Positions 8,190-18,034 of a stretch of DNA of 38,639 bases are shown one piece after another. The first letter of the stretch is position 1; the number at the start of each line of letters is the position of its first letter. The stretch is from a virus (Duplodnaviria > Heunggongvirae > Uroviricota > Caudoviricetes), in IMG/VR virus record IMGVR_UViG_2778261594_000006, positions 1-38,639 of that record; one strand, given 5' to 3'. Under the pieces are notes generated by a model. It saw only the letters and a list, made by a program, of their open reading frames with translations, ran no database searches and had not been told where the DNA came from. Made by a program: the position numbers and the translations under genes.

Positions 8190-8849
8190 TTAACTAAATG
8201 TCTCTTCAGGCCACTGGCTGGCGATAACTTTCCCTACTACGGAACAGCTATCATTGCATGGGATCATTGGATATTGCGGGTTTAGTGGTTGTAGGAACAC
8301 CTGACCGCTATCCCTGATCAGTTTCTTGAAGGTAAACTCGTCACCGCCAAGTCTGGCTATGCAGAAATCTCCTGGCTCAACAGCCTGCTCAGGGTCAACG
8401 AGAATTAACATTCCGTCAGGAAAGCTTGGCTTGGATCCTGTTGGTGCGGTCATGGAATTACCTTCAACTTCAAGCCAAAACGCACAATCACTGGCTTTTT
8501 TGGTTGTGCTGACCCATCTCTCCGCATCACCTTTGGTAAAGGTTCTAAGCTCAGGCGAGAACATCCCGGCCTGAACATGAGAAAAAACAGGGTACTCATA
8601 TTGTTTTTTAACGGGGGCAGATGAGTATTCGCCAGCAGGTGAAAATGTACCGTCGTGGTTGAATGAGACGTTATCAATACCAAGGTATTTAAACACCACA
8701 CCAATCTCGTCAAGAGATGGATGACGAGATCCGCGCAACCAGTGACCAATTCCACCCTGCGTCATACCAAGCTCTTCAGCTAACTTCTCTTGAGTTATGC
8801 CGAGCTCTTTCATTCTGGATCTAGCCAGTTCATACCATTTCATTTTCAT
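8190..8849 (-). CDS. cI: CI-type repressor (HTH domain + LexA-like S24 autocleavage domain)
   Basis: N-terminal HTH ([20 protein letters not shown]), C-terminal S24-type region ending ...[26 protein letters not shown] resembling P22 C2/lambda CI; divergent from cro. True start may be the ATG at 8843 (better RBS spacing). Confidence 0.85.
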
Positions 8850-9285: not shown

Positions 9286-9585
9286 ATGGAACAAACAAGT
9301 TACAGCAAACTATCACAGCGCGACGTTGATCGTGCAGAAACAGATTTACTTATCAACCTGTCAACGCTTACCCAGCGCGGTCTGGCAAAGATGATTGGCT
9401 GTCATGAATCGAAGATAAGCAGAACGGACTGGAGATTTATTGCTTCGGTTCTGTGTGCTTTCGGAATGGCATCAGACATCAGTCCGATTAGCAGGGCTTT
9501 TAAGTATGCGCTTGATGGACTCACCAATAAAAAACGCCCGGTGTGCAAGACCGAGCGTTCTGATCAAATACAAATGGAATTTTAA
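9286..9585 (+). CDS. cII: CII transcriptional activator
   Basis: 99-aa ORF; C-terminus LTNKKRPVCKTERSDQIQMEF closely matches lambda CII (ILTNKKRPAATERSEQIQMEF). Confidence 0.85.
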   Translation: MEQTSYSKLSQRDVDRAETDLLINLSTLTQRGLAKMIGCHESKISRTDWRFIASVLCAFGMASDISPISRAFKYALDGLTNKKRPVCKTERSDQIQMEF

Positions 9586-9882: not shown

Positions 9883-10830
9883 ATGAGCAATACAGCAAAA
9901 ATCTACGATTTCAGCGCCGCACACGAGCGCAGGAGCAACAGGATGGAGAACCAGAAAACTGGTTACATTCCGTTGTACCGGAGCATTCTGAAACAGTCAT
10001 GGGCGAAAGATGTTTATCTTCGCACCCTGTGGGAAAACCTTCTCCTGAATGCCGCCAGAAAGCCATACAAAGCGAATTTCAAAGGTCATGAATGGCATCT
10101 GCAACCCGGTCAACTGGTTGTGACAGCAGCTGATTTAGGTCTTCAGTTATGCGACAGGCATGGCAAGCCAGCAAGCCGTGATCAGGTTGAGCGGATGCTT
10201 CAGGTTTTTGTGAAAGAGGGGATGATCTCCATTGATGGAGAGAAGCAAAAAGGTCGTGTGATAACCATCACAAATTACCATGAATATGCTCAAAAAATGG
10301 ACAATTTACCCGCACATGAAGCCGCACAAACAACCGCACATGATGCCGCACATGACGAAGCCAGTAATGGCGCGGCTTTCAGCGCACATGCCGCACATGA
10401 AAGCGCACATGAAGCCGCACAAACAACCGCACATCATGAACAAGAAGGTATTAACAAGAATATAAATAATACCCCCCTACCCCCCAATGGGGGAGGCGAT
10501 GGGCAGGTTAAACCTGAACGTCGCAAGGCAGAACGAATCGACTACGAATCCTTCCTGAACGCCTACAACACCGAAGTCGGTGACAGACTGCCACACGCTG
10601 TTGCGGTCAACGAGAAACGCAAACGCCGCCTGAAGAAAATTATCCCGCAACTGAAAACGCCAAACGTGGACGGTTTCAGAGCGTATGTCAGGGCGTTTGT
10701 GCATCAGGCCAAGCCGTTTTACTTCGGAGACAACGACACGGGCTGGACGGCTGATTTTGATTACCTGCTGAGGGAAGATTCGTTAACGGGAGTTCGGGAA
10801 GGGAAGTTTGCAGACAGGGGGATTGCATGA
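9883..10830 (+). CDS. Replication initiation protein (lambda O / P22 gene 18-like) containing the origin iterons
   Basis: N-terminus [10 protein letters not shown] resembles lambda O (MTNTAKILNF); internal DNA repeats and an AT-rich tract; followed by an ATGA-coupled helicase gene. Confidence 0.75.
10305..10470. repeat. Putative replication origin: about seven direct repeats of CGCACATGA (iterons) followed by an AT-rich tract, inside the O-like gene
   Basis: Copies at about 10311, 10335, 10346, 10382, 10392, 10403 and 10428, including a 27-bp duplicated block; AT-rich 10441-10470. Confidence 0.6.
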
Positions 10831-12203
10831 GACAGGATATCGAAGCGAGCGTTATCGGTGGCCTGCTGATTGGTGGATTAACTCCAACCGCCAGTGACGT
10901 TCTGGCAACGCTGGAGCCGGAAGCGTTTTCAATTCCGCTCTACCGGAAAGCCTTCGAGGTTATCCGCAAGCAGGCGCGAAACAGAAACCTAATCGATGCG
11001 CTGATGGTTGCCGAGGCGTGCGGAGAGGAGCATTTCACGTCAATCCTGATGACCAGCAAAAACTGCCCGAGTGCCGCAAACCTGAAGGGATATGCCGGAA
11101 TGGTCGCGGATAACTATCACCGCCGTCTGGTGCTGGAAATCATGGATGAAATGCGTGAACCAATTCAGAGCGGAACCATCGACGCATCGAGTCAGGCGAT
11201 GGATGAGCTTGTAAAGCGTCTTTCAGCCATCAGAAAGCCCCGTGACGAGGTTAAACCTGTACGGTTAGGGGAAATCATCACTGACTACACTGACACGCTT
11301 GACAGGCGTCTGAGGAACGGAGAAGAGTCAGATACCCTGAAGACCGGAATCGAAGAACTTGATGTCATCACCGGAGGGATGAACTCGGAAGACCTGGTGA
11401 TTATCGCTGCTCGTCCGGGTATGGGGAAAACCGAGCTGGCGCTGAAGATTGCCGAAGGCGTTGCAAGCCGCGTTATTCCTGGTTCTGACGTCCGGCGCGG
11501 AGTGTTGATTTTCTCGATGGAAATGAGCGCATTGCAGATTGCAGAGCGAAGCATTGCCAACGCCGGGAGGATGTCGGTTAGCGTGCTGCGAAATCCTGCT
11601 TCGATGGATGACGAAGGCTGGGCGCGCGTTGCTAATGGCATGAGTCAGCTTGCAGATTTGGATGTATGGGTAGTCGATGCCTCTCGGTTATCGGTCGAAG
11701 AAATACGCTCAATCGCAGAACGGCACAAACAGGAAAATCCAAACCTGTCACTCATCATGGTGGATTATCTTGGCCTGATTGAGAAGCCGAAAGCAGATCG
11801 CAACGACCTAGCAATTGCTCACATCTCCGGAAGCCTGAAGGCGATGGCGAAAGACCTGAAAACGCCTGTTATCTCCCTAAGTCAGCTTTCGCGAGATGTT
11901 GAGAAGCGACCAAACAAACGCCCGACAAACGCAGATTTGCGTGATTCAGGAAGCATTGAACAGGACGCAGACTCAATCATCATGCTCTATCGGGAAGCGG
12001 TATATGATGAGAACAGTAGCGCCGCGCCATTTGCTGAAATCATCGTGACGAAAAACCGTTTTGGCTCGCTTGGTACGGTTTACCAGCGGTTCTGTAACGG
12101 ACACTTTGTGGCATGTGACCAGGATGAAGCCAGACAGATTTGCACAACATCAAATGCACCTGCTGCGCGTGGCAGAAGATATGCACAAGGGGCTGACGTA
12201 TGA
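10827..12203 (+). CDS. Replicative DNA helicase (DnaB-like; P22 gene 12-type)
   Basis: 458-aa ORF with Walker A GMGKT, RecA-like core and DnaB-type N-terminal domain. Confidence 0.9.
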
Positions 12204-12228
12204 CCATCTACATCACTGAGCTAATAAC

Positions 12229-12260
12229 AGGCCTGCTGGTAATCGCAGGCCTTTTTATTT
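12229..12260 (+). terminator. Rho-independent terminator (tR2-like)
   Basis: AGGCCTGC-tggtaatc-GCAGGCCT followed by TTTTTATTT. Confidence 0.7.
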
Positions 12261-12275
12261 GGGGGAGAGTAAATC

Positions 12276-12482
12276 GTGGTTGAGTTTATGCTCGTCGCAC
12301 TCAAATGCGTTGGCGTTGGATGGATTCTTATGACGTTTTTTATTGTTCTGCATATCTACATTCGTCTTGTGAATGACGGTAAAGAACCATGGTATACGTT
12401 GTGTGGCGCTGCATTTGTCTGGGTGATTATCGGTGTTATGCCTGTCGCTGTAGCAAAAATGGCGTGGCGTTTTGTGAGTTAA
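12276..12482 (+). CDS. Small membrane protein (68 aa), nin-region accessory gene
   Basis: GTG start with GGGGGAGAG RBS; two hydrophobic segments. Confidence 0.45.
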   Translation: MVEFMLVALKCVGVGWILMTFFIVLHIYIRLVNDGKEPWYTLCGAAFVWVIIGVMPVAVAKMAWRFVS

Positions 12483-12494
12483 TCGGAGGTTAAT

Positions 12495-12917
12495 GTGAGC
12501 AAGTGCCAAAAGTGCAATAACACAGGAATGTGTGATAGCGGAGGTTCTACTCCTTGGGGAGAGCCGATTTTTATTGAATGTGACTGCCTTATGAAAGATG
12601 ACGAAAGCAGATGCCAGTTTGAAGAGAGTTGGTTACGACGTGGGGGCGAATCTTCAGACCTTATCCGTTACCCTGAAAATCACCATGAAATTGGCAGTGG
12701 TGATATTGGTGGTCAATACGTGATGGACGATGTTCAAGGCCACTGGCAAACGTGGCAGGCATCGCGATCAGCTATTGAAATAACCGCGCCAAAGTTTATC
12801 GACAGCAGAGAAGCATTAGCCAAAGGGTTTACTGTTGATTATTCCAATGGCTTCGGTGATGCAATGGAGGCTTATGAGGAAAACATCCGCGCTGCTGGAA
12901 TCAAAGTGAAGGAGTGA
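12495..12917 (+). CDS. Cysteine-rich hypothetical protein (140 aa, zinc-ribbon-like N-terminus)
   Basis: GTG start with GGAGG RBS; CQKCNNTGMC...CDC motif. Confidence 0.5.
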   Translation: MSKCQKCNNTGMCDSGGSTPWGEPIFIECDCLMKDDESRCQFEESWLRRGGESSDLIRYPENHHEIGSGDIGGQYVMDDVQGHWQTWQASRSAIEITAPKFIDSREALAKGFTVDYSNGFGDAMEAYEENIRAAGIKVKE

Positions 12918-12919
12918 GC

Positions 12920-13105
12920 ATGAGTCGACGAAGTAGCTTTTTGGGGTTTGTAATATTCCTGTCCTGCACTGGTTACATCGTAATCTGGTCAATTTCGAAC
13001 ATTGACCGTGGCGTGGCATATCTCATTGTAATGTTCTTTCCTTTGTTTCTTGGGTGGTACGCCGCAAGGTTGCTGGAAGAATGGGGTTACAGGCATAAAA
13101 AATAA
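12920..13105 (+). CDS. Small membrane protein (61 aa)
   Basis: ATG at 12920 with AAGGAG RBS 6 nt upstream; two hydrophobic helices. Confidence 0.4.
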   Translation: MSRRSSFLGFVIFLSCTGYIVIWSISNIDRGVAYLIVMFFPLFLGWYAARLLEEWGYRHKK

Positions 13106-13116
13106 AGGAGTATTCA

Positions 13117-13527
13117 GTGAAGCAAACAATCTTCCTCCGAACTAAGCAACAACAGCAAGCTGCAATAAATGCCATCCTCGCAACGCCACTCGATAAAGAC
13201 AAGCCAGTCACCATCCGCATTACTGACTACAAGCGCAACCTTGACCAGAACGCAAAATTTCACGCGATGCTGGCGGATATCGCACGTCAGGTTCAATGGT
13301 GCGATAAATGGTTAAAACCAGAACAATGGAAGGTTTTGTTGATCAGCGGTCATGCAGTGGCTACAAAGCAGGAAGCTGATGTTTTGCCCGGCCTTGAAGG
13401 CGAATACGTCAACATTCGCGAAAGTAGCGCGCAGATGAGTGTGAAGCGTATGGCAAGTCTGATTGAGTACACGACAGCATGGGCTATTGGTCAGGGCGTC
13501 AGATTTACCGACAGGAGGTACGAATGA
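13117..13527 (+). CDS. ninB: NinB (Orf-family recombination mediator)
   Basis: GTG start with AAGGAG RBS; similarity to lambda NinB (...RSLDQN.KF.A.L.D..RQV.W). Confidence 0.85.
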
Positions 13528-13700
13528 GACGACAGCGACGAAGTATCACCGACATAATCTGTGAAAACTGCAAATACCTTCCAACGAAACGCTCCAGAAA
13601 TAAACGCAAGCCAATCCCAAAAGAATCTGACGTAAAAACCTTCAATTACACGGCTCACCTGTGGGATATCCGGTGGCTAAGACATCGTGCGAGGAAATGA
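13524..13700 (+). CDS. ninE: NinE
   Basis: 58-aa [55 protein letters not shown]..., matching lambda NinE as recalled; ATGA-coupled to ninB. Confidence 0.8.
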
Positions 13701-15619: not shown

Positions 15620-15804
15620 ACGCCACAATTCAAACGATACCAGAGCTTCTTATACAGACACGAGGCAATCAGACCGAAGTGGCGAGGATGCTTTCCTGCG
15701 CAAGAGGAACAGTGCTCAAGTACAACCGAGACAGCAAAGGCGAGCGTCACGTAATAGTTAACGGCGTCCTGATGGTCAAACAGGGCAAGAGGGGAAGACG
15801 ATGA
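15616..15804 (+). CDS. ninH: NinH
   Basis: 62-aa ORF ...GNQTEVARMLSCARGTVLKY...HVIVNGVLMV, similar to lambda NinH. Confidence 0.8.
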   Translation: MNATIQTIPELLIQTRGNQTEVARMLSCARGTVLKYNRDSKGERHVIVNGVLMVKQGKRGRR

Positions 15805-16289
15805 GCATAAGAGAACTAAACCTCACCAAAGAACAGCACGAGTGGCTGAATGGCTGGCTTGAACTGTGGGGCGCATGGGTTTATTCAGGTCGTCTGGAAA
15901 AGCGCATGAGCAGCGTAATAGCGAAGTTCATGGAGAGCGTAGAGCCGGGAAGAGTTATGACAAGGCCAATGTGTAATGATGATGATGGAATGTTGATTTC
16001 TCAGGTCGTCGATTCCGTCATGTACATTGACAAGAAAGCCTTTGGCATCCTCCTCAGCTACTACGCTCACGGTTCTTCCAAGCACGCCATTGCATCTTAC
16101 TATCATCGCGTCGCAAGACCTCGCAAGATGTTATGCCGGGGCGGCGGGCGCATTCAAAAACCATCGCTCGCAACCTGTCGTCGGGAAGTTGACGAAATCC
16201 TCAATGCCTCGTTGTTTATGATTTACCCGGTTCTGGATAGTGCGTTTAAAAACCGGAAACGTGTAGAGAAAATTAAACATGTAGCATAG
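15801..16289 (+). CDS. Q: Late-gene antiterminator Q
   Basis: 162-aa ORF at the end of the nin region, immediately upstream of the late promoter/terminator region and lysis cassette; Cys/His-containing C-terminal half. Confidence 0.7.
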   Translation: MSIRELNLTKEQHEWLNGWLELWGAWVYSGRLEKRMSSVIAKFMESVEPGRVMTRPMCNDDDGMLISQVVDSVMYIDKKAFGILLSYYAHGSSKHAIASYYHRVARPRKMLCRGGGRIQKPSLATCRREVDEILNASLFMIYPVLDSAFKNRKRVEKIKHVA

Positions 16290-16816: not shown

Positions 16817-17140
16817 ATGAAGATGCCAGAAAAACATGACCTGTTAGCCGCCATTCTCGCGGCAAAGGAACAAGGCATCGGGGCAATCCTTGCGTTTGCA
16901 ATGGCGTACCTTCGCGGCAGATATAATGGCGGTGCGTTTACAAAAACAGTAATCGACGCAACGATGTGCGCCATTATCGCCTGGTTCATTCGTGACCTTC
17001 TCGACTTCGCCGGACTAAGTAGCAATCTCGCTTATATAACAAGCGTGTTTATCGGCTACATCGGCACTGACTCGATTGGTTCGCTTATCAAACGCTTCGC
17101 TGCTAAAAAAGCCGGAGTAGAAGATGGTGGAAATCAATAA
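16817..17140 (+). CDS. S: Holin, lambda S family (dual-start M-K-M)
   Basis: 107-aa ORF near-identical to my recollection of lambda S; upstream stem-loop CCCCTTACTGGGGG overlaps the RBS. Confidence 0.95.
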
Positions 17141-17600
17141 TCAACGTAAGGCGTTCCTCGATATGCTGGCGTGGTCAGAGGGAACTGATAACGGACGTCA
17201 GAAAACCAGAAATCATGGTTATGACGTCATTGTTGGCGGAGGGCTATTCACTGATTACTCCGATCACCCTCGCAAACTTGTCACGCTAAACCCCAAACTC
17301 AAATCAACAGCCGCCGGACGTTACCAGCTTCTTTCCCGTTGGTGGGATGCCTATCGTAAGCAGCTTGGCCTGAAAGACTTCTCTCCGAAAAGCCAGGACG
17401 CCGTTGCGCTGCAGCAGATTAAGGAGCGTGGCGCTTTACCGATGATTGATCGCGGTGATATTCGTCAGGCTATCGACCGTTGCAGCAATATCTGGGCTTC
17501 ACTGCCGGGCGCTGGTTATGGTCAGTTCGAGCATAAGGCTGACAGCCTGATTGCAAAATTCAAAGAAGCAGGCGGAATGGTCAGAGAGATTGAGGTATGA
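17124..17600 (+). CDS. R: Endolysin, lambda R-type lytic transglycosylase
   Basis: 158-aa [38 protein letters not shown]..., near-identical to lambda R as recalled. Confidence 0.95.
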
Positions 17601-18034
17601 GCAGAGTCACCGCGATTATCTCCGCTCTGGTTATCTGCATCATCGTCTGCCTGTCGTGGGCGGTCAATCATTACCGTGATAACGCCATCGCCTATAAAGA
17701 GCAGCGCGATAAGGCCACATCCACAATCGCTGACATGCAGAAGCGTCAACGTGATGTAGCAGAACTTGACGCCAGATACACAAAGGAGCTTGCTGATGCT
17801 AACGCGACTATCGAAAGTCTCCGTGCTGATGTTTCTGCTGGTCGTAAGCGCCTGCAAGTCGCCGCCACCTGTGCAAAGTCAACGACCGGAGCCAGCGGCA
17901 TGGGCAATGGAGAAAGCCCAAGACTTACAGCAGATGCTGAACTCAATTATTACCGTCTCCGAAGTGGAATCGACAGGATAACCGCGCAGGTTAACTACCT
18001 GCAGGAATACATCAGGACGCAATGCCTTCGATGA
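17597..18034 (+). CDS. Rz: Rz i-spanin
   Basis: 145-aa ORF with N-terminal TM and coiled-coil; N-terminal region near-identical to lambda Rz, C-terminal part diverged. Confidence 0.9.
17796..17981 (+). CDS. Rz1: Rz1 o-spanin (outer-membrane lipoprotein) embedded in the +1 frame of Rz
   Basis: ATG at 17796 with AAAGGAG RBS; signal peptide [20 protein letters not shown] with lipobox Cys; Pro-rich mature part. Confidence 0.7.

Follow-up and report, generated by a model that had tools for sequence, protein, structure and literature searches.

The nin genes of lambdoid phages are non-essential and tightly packed, and each phage carries about ten of them from a pool of 30-50 (PMC5630979; PMC8022706). 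The interval considered here occupies the same position as this pool in lambda (ninB-ninH), P22 (ninA-ninZ), HK022 (gp56-gp60) and Sf6 (gp45-gp49), after the replication genes and the terminator tR2 and before ninB, and it lies in the 38,639-nucleotide (nt) viral record IMGVR_UViG_2778261594_000006 of IMG/VR, the whole of which is referred to below as the window. A first-pass annotation had placed three small open reading frames (ORF1, ORF2 and ORF3) between a tR2-like terminator and ninB, and both the frames and their boundaries are confirmed (Table 1). They are also extra relative to lambda, as had been stated there: in the lambda genome the stretch from the end of ren (40570) to the start of NinB (40644) contains tR2 alone.

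The interval is best read, with a probability of roughly 70%, as a three-gene accessory cassette in a hypervariable tR2-ninB slot, composed of tightly packed pR-operon cistrons that would be expressed as delayed-early genes. Placement in the rightward early operon follows from the order of the surrounding genes, with cI, cII, O and the helicase upstream and Q and the lysis genes downstream, and from a terminator that is the same as that of lambda. The likeness to the nin pool extends to tight packing, non-essential status, mosaic exchange and an identical tR2/Shine-Dalgarno block (PMC5630979; PMC8022706). This is ordinary nin-region mosaicism involving genes from a freely shuffled accessory pool, and the hint of something unusual in the earlier word "inserted" does not hold, since the hypervariability of this section of the nin pool is known, both from the literature (PMC5630979; PMC8022706) and from the census given below. 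The window as a whole is a mosaic P22-like podovirus genome (Lederbergvirus) of Escherichia coli, and over its first 25 kilobases it is most closely related to CUS-3, Kapi1, vB_EcoP-720R6, phiv205-1 and Gally, with an identity of about 96% and a query coverage of 37-61%.

The upstream boundary of the slot is shared with described phages. The block from the terminator stem (AGGCCTGC...) through the Shine-Dalgarno sequence GGGGGAGAG is invariant in the window, lambda, HK620, HK022 and Sf6 (alignment A6), and the tR2 label on this identical terminator comes from the annotated phage records that were compared (lambda, HK620, HK022 and Sf6). Because it matches lambda tR2 base for base, the terminator of the window is tR2 itself and more than tR2-like. 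Upstream of the block, the stretch beginning ATGACCATCTACAT is mostly common to lambda and is missing from HK022. The Shine-Dalgarno sequence after tR2 serves whichever gene stands first, namely ninB in lambda, ORF1 in the window, HK620 and HK022, and gp46 in Sf6; one ribosome-binding site thus serves different first genes, which places a mosaic joint right at the start codon.

From this joint the three cistrons run head to tail, 2-12 nt apart, with GGGGGAGAG lying 6 nt before ORF1, GGAGG 5 nt before ORF2 and AAGGAG 5 nt before ORF3, and the two GTG starts with good ribosome-binding sites reported earlier, those of ORF1 and ORF2, stand. Most of ORF2 belongs to the phiTE_015 family (genes of this family are called phiTE genes below), whose C-terminus, ...AG(I/L)KVK(E/K), is encoded by AAAGTGAAGGAGTGA (window 12903-12922), a DNA segment that also contains the Shine-Dalgarno sequence of the next gene; in HK022 (locus L013, 1790-1800) and Sf6 (locus L014, 1800-1810), gp60 and gp49 respectively likewise start 4-5 nt past the phiTE_015 stop. 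The apparent protein conservation of the phiTE_015 end may therefore be in part a DNA-level expression or recombination joint. Modules of the slot are exchanged by recombination at three conserved joints, namely the tR2/Shine-Dalgarno block, a WQASRxAIEI motif inside the phiTE gene, and the KVKE-stop/Shine-Dalgarno joint at its end.

The boundary also holds a putative coding element that the first-pass annotation omitted, a ninA-like hydrophobic ORF of 27 codons whose start overlaps the helicase stop (ATGA), which spans the tR2 hairpin and which ends 8 nt inside ORF1. The same 27-codon ORF is annotated as ninA in HK620, as gene 45 in Sf6 and in SPN9CC, and the name ninA is used in P22 as well. 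Its conservation is equally explained by tR2 itself; if it were translated, termination at tR2 could be modulated by ribosomes moving through the hairpin stem.

The variability of the slot was described in a census of 80 IMG/VR contigs carrying an ORF1 of the window's type, in which the content from ORF1 to ninB was classified; these contigs are phylogenetically non-independent, and the counts are descriptive only. The commonest order is ORF1, a phiTE gene and ninB (27/80), followed by ORF1, a phiTE gene, ORF3 and ninB (15/80) and by ORF1 directly before ninB (11/80). Eight contigs have ORF1, a phiTE gene, an unclassified non-membrane ORF (in some HK022 gp60-like) and ninB, while six have ORF1, an Sf6 gp46-like gene with one transmembrane (TM) segment, a gp47-like gene and a phiTE gene (followed in one contig by ORF3) before ninB. 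Two phiTE genes flanking another 60-aa two-TM ORF occur in a further six (with ORF3 in three of these), ORF1, a Cys-containing phiTE gene and ninB in four, and ORF1, a phiTE gene, ORF3, an unclassified ORF and ninB in one; in the last two of the 80, ninB was absent from the fetched locus. The exact gene order of the window, a Cys-phiTE gene with this tail followed by ORF3, was found in none of the 80 contigs, and a Cys4 knuckle on a phiTE_015 protein was seen at 5 of 81 census loci. Moreover, HK022, Sf6, SPN9CC, Stx2-86 and Gally each carry a different content in the slot. On these gene orders, the slot genes assort largely independently. The slot seems to take up small membrane proteins repeatedly: in related prophages it also holds a 60-aa two-TM protein (MVNAFICSLFLVAIFHGFLLMM...) between two phiTE_015 genes (L046 4287-4469, L068 4236-4418) and an Sf6 gp46-like protein of 108 aa with one N-terminal TM segment (L021 2436-2762).

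The same gene orders bear on the suggestion that the three products act as one unit, with ORF1 and ORF3 forming a membrane complex and ORF2 serving as its cytoplasmic partner. The genes are indeed adjacent and translationally close-packed, and ORF3 follows directly behind a phiTE gene in 21 of 21 census cases and in each of the four phage records where it occurs. However, ORF1 stands alone in 11 of the 80 contigs and without ORF3 in more than 40, a 74%-identical homolog of ORF3 lies directly after the helicase gene in a locus with neither ORF1 nor a phiTE gene, and in the Gally record nothing ORF1-like is annotated ahead of the phiTE gene and ORF3 (a statement about the annotation only, there being a gap of about 290 nt at that point). 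The constant neighbourhood of the phiTE gene and ORF3 may be recombinational instead of functional, since the KVKE-stop end carries the Shine-Dalgarno sequence of the next gene and an ORF3 homolog can directly follow the helicase. A single functional unit is thus improbable.

The first-pass annotation had pointed to exclusion or host modulation as a frequent role of small membrane proteins in delayed-early regions, and expression of the cassette is best considered together with the corresponding proposal that ORF1 and ORF3 are prophage-expressed superinfection-exclusion or lysogenic-conversion genes (morons) like HK97 gp15 or P22 SieA. Exclusion proteins are often small inner-membrane proteins, and in this respect two small membrane proteins at a variable accessory locus would fit. 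HK97 gp15-type morons likewise share with ORF1 and ORF3 the small membrane protein and the lambdoid accessory position (moron concept, PMC5630979). Morons nevertheless have a promoter and a terminator of their own and are expressed from the prophage, and neither element was found at ORF1-ORF3: across 11800-13600 none of the three ORFs is preceded by a sigma-70-like site, the sole promoter-like site lying inside ninB, and none is followed by a terminator, the only one being tR2 upstream. The genes lie beyond tR2 inside the repressed pR operon. In addition, a comparison with exclusion and defence families (PADLOC-DB; SieA, SieB and Imm-like proteins) gave no PADLOC family at E<=1 and no relevant Pfam or NCBIfam match, and the lysogen-expressed genes named for the P22-like prophage BTP1, bstA, pid, gtrA and gtrC, include no nin gene (PMC7067206). 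A moron identity is accordingly not probable. With neither promoter nor terminator of their own and with a position beyond tR2 in the pR operon, the three genes would more readily be expressed outside the lysogenic state: by analogy with lambda and P22, pR transcripts would pass tR2 into ORF1-ORF3 only in the presence of the phage's N-type antiterminator, so that the products would be made as delayed-early proteins in lytic growth or after induction and would be silent in the lysogen.

ORF1 is the most widely conserved gene of the cassette. It matches phrog_1165 at E=3.8e-36, with residues 1-68 aligned to profile positions 1-68 of 68, and finds no match beyond that family in Pfam, NCBIfam or PADLOC, or by sequence in solved structures. 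Its homologs occur in 107 phage records, each at 97% coverage or more and with identity down to 50%, and form 56 clusters in a collection of 5.8 billion proteins, nearly all of them exactly 68 aa long. Two hydrophobic segments are called in Kyte-Doolittle windows of 19 residues scoring above 1.6 (window starts 1-15 and 39-46), in line with a predicted membrane hairpin. The alignment separates two N-terminal allele classes of about 50% identity in which hydrophobicity is retained, and hardly any variation is seen in the loop (LV..GKD) or in the C-terminal half (W-VIIGVMPVAVAKMAWRFVS). Homologs also share the position of the start codon, for which E. coli phages use GTG and Salmonella phages ATG. 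In the phages examined ORF1 is always the first gene after tR2, whatever the upstream replication module, be it a DnaB-type helicase, a DnaC-like ATPase or a lambda-type P with ren (H-19B). In the HK620 record (AF335538; L003 2577-2783), a homolog of 68 aa, 91% identical and with a GTG start, was left unannotated and fills the 207-nt "gap" between tR2 and ninB.

ORF2 combines two modules. The earlier description of the protein as zinc-ribbon-like applies to its first 31 or so residues, a Cys4 module, and not to the remainder, which is mostly a Phage_phiTE_015 domain. Of its six cysteines, C4, C7, C29 and C31 are conserved and C13 and C40 are not; the four conserved residues do not vary among six sequences drawn from four phage groups (alignment A3), and the G/DSGG/PWG motif is invariant among the copies of the module as well. 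The cysteines would form two knuckles flanking a predicted beta-hairpin, which in the AF2 model covers residues 12-28, with strands at 12-18 and 24-28 and a pLDDT of about 75, and the knuckle is probably zinc-binding. The same 31-residue module forms the N-terminus of otherwise unrelated proteins in Pseudomonas phage PAK_P3 (403 aa) and Seurat-like coliphages (179 aa), and tblastn also finds it in an Aeromonas phage, all of which marks it, by sequence comparison, as a portable N-terminal module. The module shares 53-66% amino-acid identity with these virulent PAK_P3-like, Seurat-like and Aeromonas phages, its host proteins being 179-403 aa long; copies lie at 1471-1570 of the PAK_P3 locus (L010) and 1495-1590 of the Seurat locus (L011), and synonymous sites are saturated in the comparison with Seurat.

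The remainder of ORF2 matches phrog_343 at E=2.5e-29 over residues 27-140, the family core covering residues 36-140. PF26207 is precomputed on 119 of 120 ORF2 homologs in the protein collection, and RefSeq uses the name 'phiTE_015 family protein'; a Pfam scan gave no match for ORF2 or its homologs, so that PF26207 membership rests on the precomputed labels. Genes of the family were found in 95 phage records and include HK022 gp59 and Sf6 gp48. The family shows a core, SRxQFE...WxxWQASRxAIEI, then a highly variable tail, and then the ...AG(I/L)KVK(E/K) end, in which G135, K137, V138 and K139 of ORF2 are invariant or nearly so. Over residues 1-91 ORF2 follows the phiv205-1 type and in its tail it shares about 95% identity with a 106-aa E. 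coli type (P0018), with the switch of type located at the conserved WQASRxAIEI motif; ORF2 itself is thus a recombinant, mosaic protein.

ORF3 is the least widespread of the three. An alternative GTG start at 12914 would give 63 aa and lies inside the Shine-Dalgarno site. Two hydrophobic segments (Kyte-Doolittle window starts 4-10 and 31-34) are kept across homologs, and with six K/R in the termini (MSRRSS... and ...RLLEEWGYRHKK) against one in the loop (NIDRG), the positive-inside rule strongly favours a hairpin with both ends in the cytoplasm. The claim that two of the three products are membrane proteins is in this sense borne out as a prediction, ORF1 and ORF3 each having two TM-length segments joined by a short polar loop. 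The two proteins show no similarity to each other, and paralogy between them is rejected. ORF3 has no match in PHROG, Pfam, NCBIfam or PADLOC, and its homologs are sparse, amounting to four clusters in the 5.8-billion-protein collection and four phage records; among 5426 complete RefSeq E. coli genomes, 195 (about 3.6%) contain it at an identity of at least 95%. It is almost restricted to E. coli prophages. Among the matches listed, all 25 of 25 rows lacked an annotated feature at this place (for instance NZ_CP149815.1 1520790-1520988), and annotation here systematically passes over a small membrane protein that has a strong ribosome-binding site and a ratio of non-synonymous to synonymous substitution rates (dN/dS) of 0.17. 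Two HMMER matches in 1.84 billion representative proteins (E=3e-6 and 7e-5) were rejected: the better one is a soluble fn3-domain repeat protein whose 47-residue repeats resemble ORF3 by chance, and the second, assessed by Pfam scan alone, has no related domain. Among species-representative genomes ORF3 was found only in one metagenome-assembled genome, at 97% identity, labelled 'Bacillota bacterium' (L099, JAEZIN010000021.1), and this contig is probably a mis-binned E. coli phage or prophage contig.

Substitution patterns indicate that all three ORFs are genes under purifying selection, with dN/dS between 0.17 and 0.36. For ORF1 the ratio is 0.34-0.36 (dS about 1.1, dN about 0.4) against the divergent HK022 gp58 and Stx2-86 orf70 alleles (Fisher p<1e-3), for ORF2 it is 0.36 against HK022 gp59 (Fisher p=3e-4), and for ORF3 it is 0.17 (dS 1.03, dN 0.18) against the 74%-identical homolog from a metagenomic assembly (Fisher p=2e-6), with which ORF3 shares its length, start and stop. 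Length and frame are kept by all three across their homologs, and conservation in related phages, the absence of which had been named in advance as counting against these ORFs, extends to 107 records for ORF1, 95 for the ORF2 family, and four records plus the 195 E. coli genomes for ORF3. It is therefore highly improbable that the ORFs are spurious, or that they serve as translated filler shielding the tR2-ninB part of the transcript from Rho. Such a reading could draw on the fact that the RefSeq pipeline does not call ORF3 and the HK620 authors did not call ORF1, on the near lack of ORF3 homologs, and on a dN/dS of about 1 within close alleles, though with very few changes; it is countered by the low ratios across divergent alleles, where dS is near or above 1, by the exact conservation of length, start and stop, and by a hydrophobic pattern that in ORF1 persists down to 47% identity. 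Antisense ORFs, moreover, are interrupted in homologs, and two were rejected, that at 12255-12509 for an internal stop in the Stx2-86 homolog and that at 12816-13019 for stops that break the frame in the L007 homolog.

Equally far from probable is a role of ORF1 or ORF3 as an early-expressed lysis-timing factor (class II holin, pinholin or antiholin-like), for although in size and two-TM layout they are reminiscent of the pinholin of phage 21, which at 68 aa is as long as ORF1, neither has a Pfam holin match, both lie in the early and not the late operon, and the phage has a separate, complete lysis cassette after Q.

As to function, the following mechanism is put forward with low confidence. 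The hairpins of ORF1 and ORF3 would insert in the cytoplasmic membrane, where their conserved tails (AKMAWRFVS in ORF1, RLLEEWGYRHKK in ORF3) could bind a membrane component of the host or of the phage in the course of lytic growth. Their role would be one of non-essential fitness, for example blocking secondary DNA entry or competing phages in the manner of T4 Imm, or tuning envelope or lysis physiology, while ORF2 would be a cytoplasmic binding protein with the portable Cys4 knuckle as its interaction module. Doubtful to a greater degree is the more specific possibility that ORF1 and/or ORF3 are undescribed lytic-phase membrane effectors, acting for example in delayed-early exclusion or as inhibitors of membrane-acting abortive infection, with ORF3 possibly assisted by a phiTE_015 partner; if true, lytic-phase exclusion or counter-defence membrane proteins would be a new class for lambdoid biology.

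Several points weigh against the reading of the interval as an accessory cassette of independent delayed-early genes with membrane-directed functions. The promoter scan covers the sigma-70 consensus, and a weak or non-canonical promoter could escape it; the constant position of ORF3 behind a phiTE gene points to possible functional coupling and less independence; and the topology of ORF1 is ambiguous by charge, with three K/R in the termini and two in the loop. Known activities are not recognised for any of the three proteins in Pfam, NCBIfam or PADLOC, where only sub-threshold noise appeared (T4SS_pilin at E=0.32, an antiporter subunit at E=0.038), and solved structures searched by sequence with profiles A1, A2 and ORF3 gave nothing better than E=1. 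Furthermore, a fold search with the predicted model of ORF2 gave no fold match, and the literature yielded nothing on 'phiTE_015', no functional study of these families, and general nin-region background only.

Table 1. Features of the window in and around the tR2-ninB slot.
Feature	Position	Strand	Description
cI-type repressor	8190-8849	-	upstream of the three-gene interval
cII-like gene	9286-9585		upstream of the interval
O-like initiator	9883-10830		upstream of the interval
DnaB-type replicative helicase	10827-12203	+	Pfam DnaB_C 1.5e-78, DnaB 4.6e-13; last replication gene of the rightward early operon
ninA-like ORF	12200-12283	+	27 codons, hydrophobic; putative coding
Intrinsic terminator tR2	12229-12262	+	8-bp GC-rich stem, 8-nt loop, T-run (terminator scan; hairpin 12229-12252, then T-run)
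Shared Shine-Dalgarno GGGGGAGAG	12261-12269	+	after tR2 (alignment A6)
ORF1	12276-12482	+	68 aa, GTG start; PHROG 1165 (HK022 gp58 family); predicted two-pass inner-membrane protein
ORF2	12495-12917	+	140 aa, GTG start; acidic, soluble; no hydrophobic segments (Kyte-Doolittle)
ORF2 N-terminal Cys4 module	12495-12599	+	C-x2-C-x3-G-x2-DSGG-x2-PWG-x-PI-x3-C-x-C
ORF2 C-terminal Phage_phiTE_015 domain	12600-12917	+	PF26207, PHROG 343; acidic, soluble, mosaic tail
ORF3 Shine-Dalgarno AAGGAG	12909-12914	+	formed by the conserved K-V-K-E codons at the end of ORF2
ORF3	12920-13105	+	61 aa, ATG start; predicted two-pass inner-membrane hairpin
ninB	13117-13527	+	Orf-family recombination mediator; Pfam NinB 4.2e-54; downstream boundary of the slot
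Q-type antiterminator	15801-16289		downstream of the nin genes
Holin	16817-17140		lysis cassette after Q
Lysozyme	17124-17600		lysis cassette after Q
Rz	17597-18034		lysis cassette after Q; complete cassette 16817-18034

Further nin genes follow ninB and precede Q, and Rfam and transfer RNA scans of the whole window for RNA genes were empty.

As a discovery the locus carries little weight, being textbook nin-region mosaicism, and homologs of each of the three genes have already been deposited as hypothetical proteins (HK022 gp58 and gp59, phiv205-1, vB_EcoP-611R6). What is new is minor, namely this mosaic combination, the recognition of ORF3 as a genuine gene overlooked by annotation pipelines, and the coincidence of the joints with translation signals. 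Modest value lies in three points: ORF3 is under purifying selection and yet is not called by the RefSeq pipeline, although 195 complete E. coli genomes contain it, ORF1 is a well-conserved small membrane protein by prediction, whose fixed position as first gene after tR2 makes it an easy target for functional work, and joints at translation signals show how cassettes swap without breaking expression.

Among known systems, T4 Imm and Sp are small early membrane proteins that exclude superinfecting phage in lytic growth, and they offer a functional analogy only, no sequence or profile similarity to ORF1 or ORF3 having been detected. The closer comparisons lie within the lambdoid phages. Lambda has nothing between tR2 and ninB, whereas phiv205-1, the nearest relative at the locus, is 91% identical in DNA and differs in the tail of ORF2. 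The PHROG 1165 proteins HK022 gp58 and orf70 of Stx2-converting phage 86 have the same length and the same first-after-tR2 position as ORF1, whose N-terminal allele is that of HK620 and shares about 50% identity with the HK022/Stx type. Finally, residues 36-140 of ORF2 carry the core of PF26207/PHROG 343 (SRxQFE...WxxWQASRxAIEI...IRAAGxKVK), as do HK022 gp59 and Sf6 gp48, and ORF2 differs from most members of that family in its extra N-terminal Cys4 knuckle.

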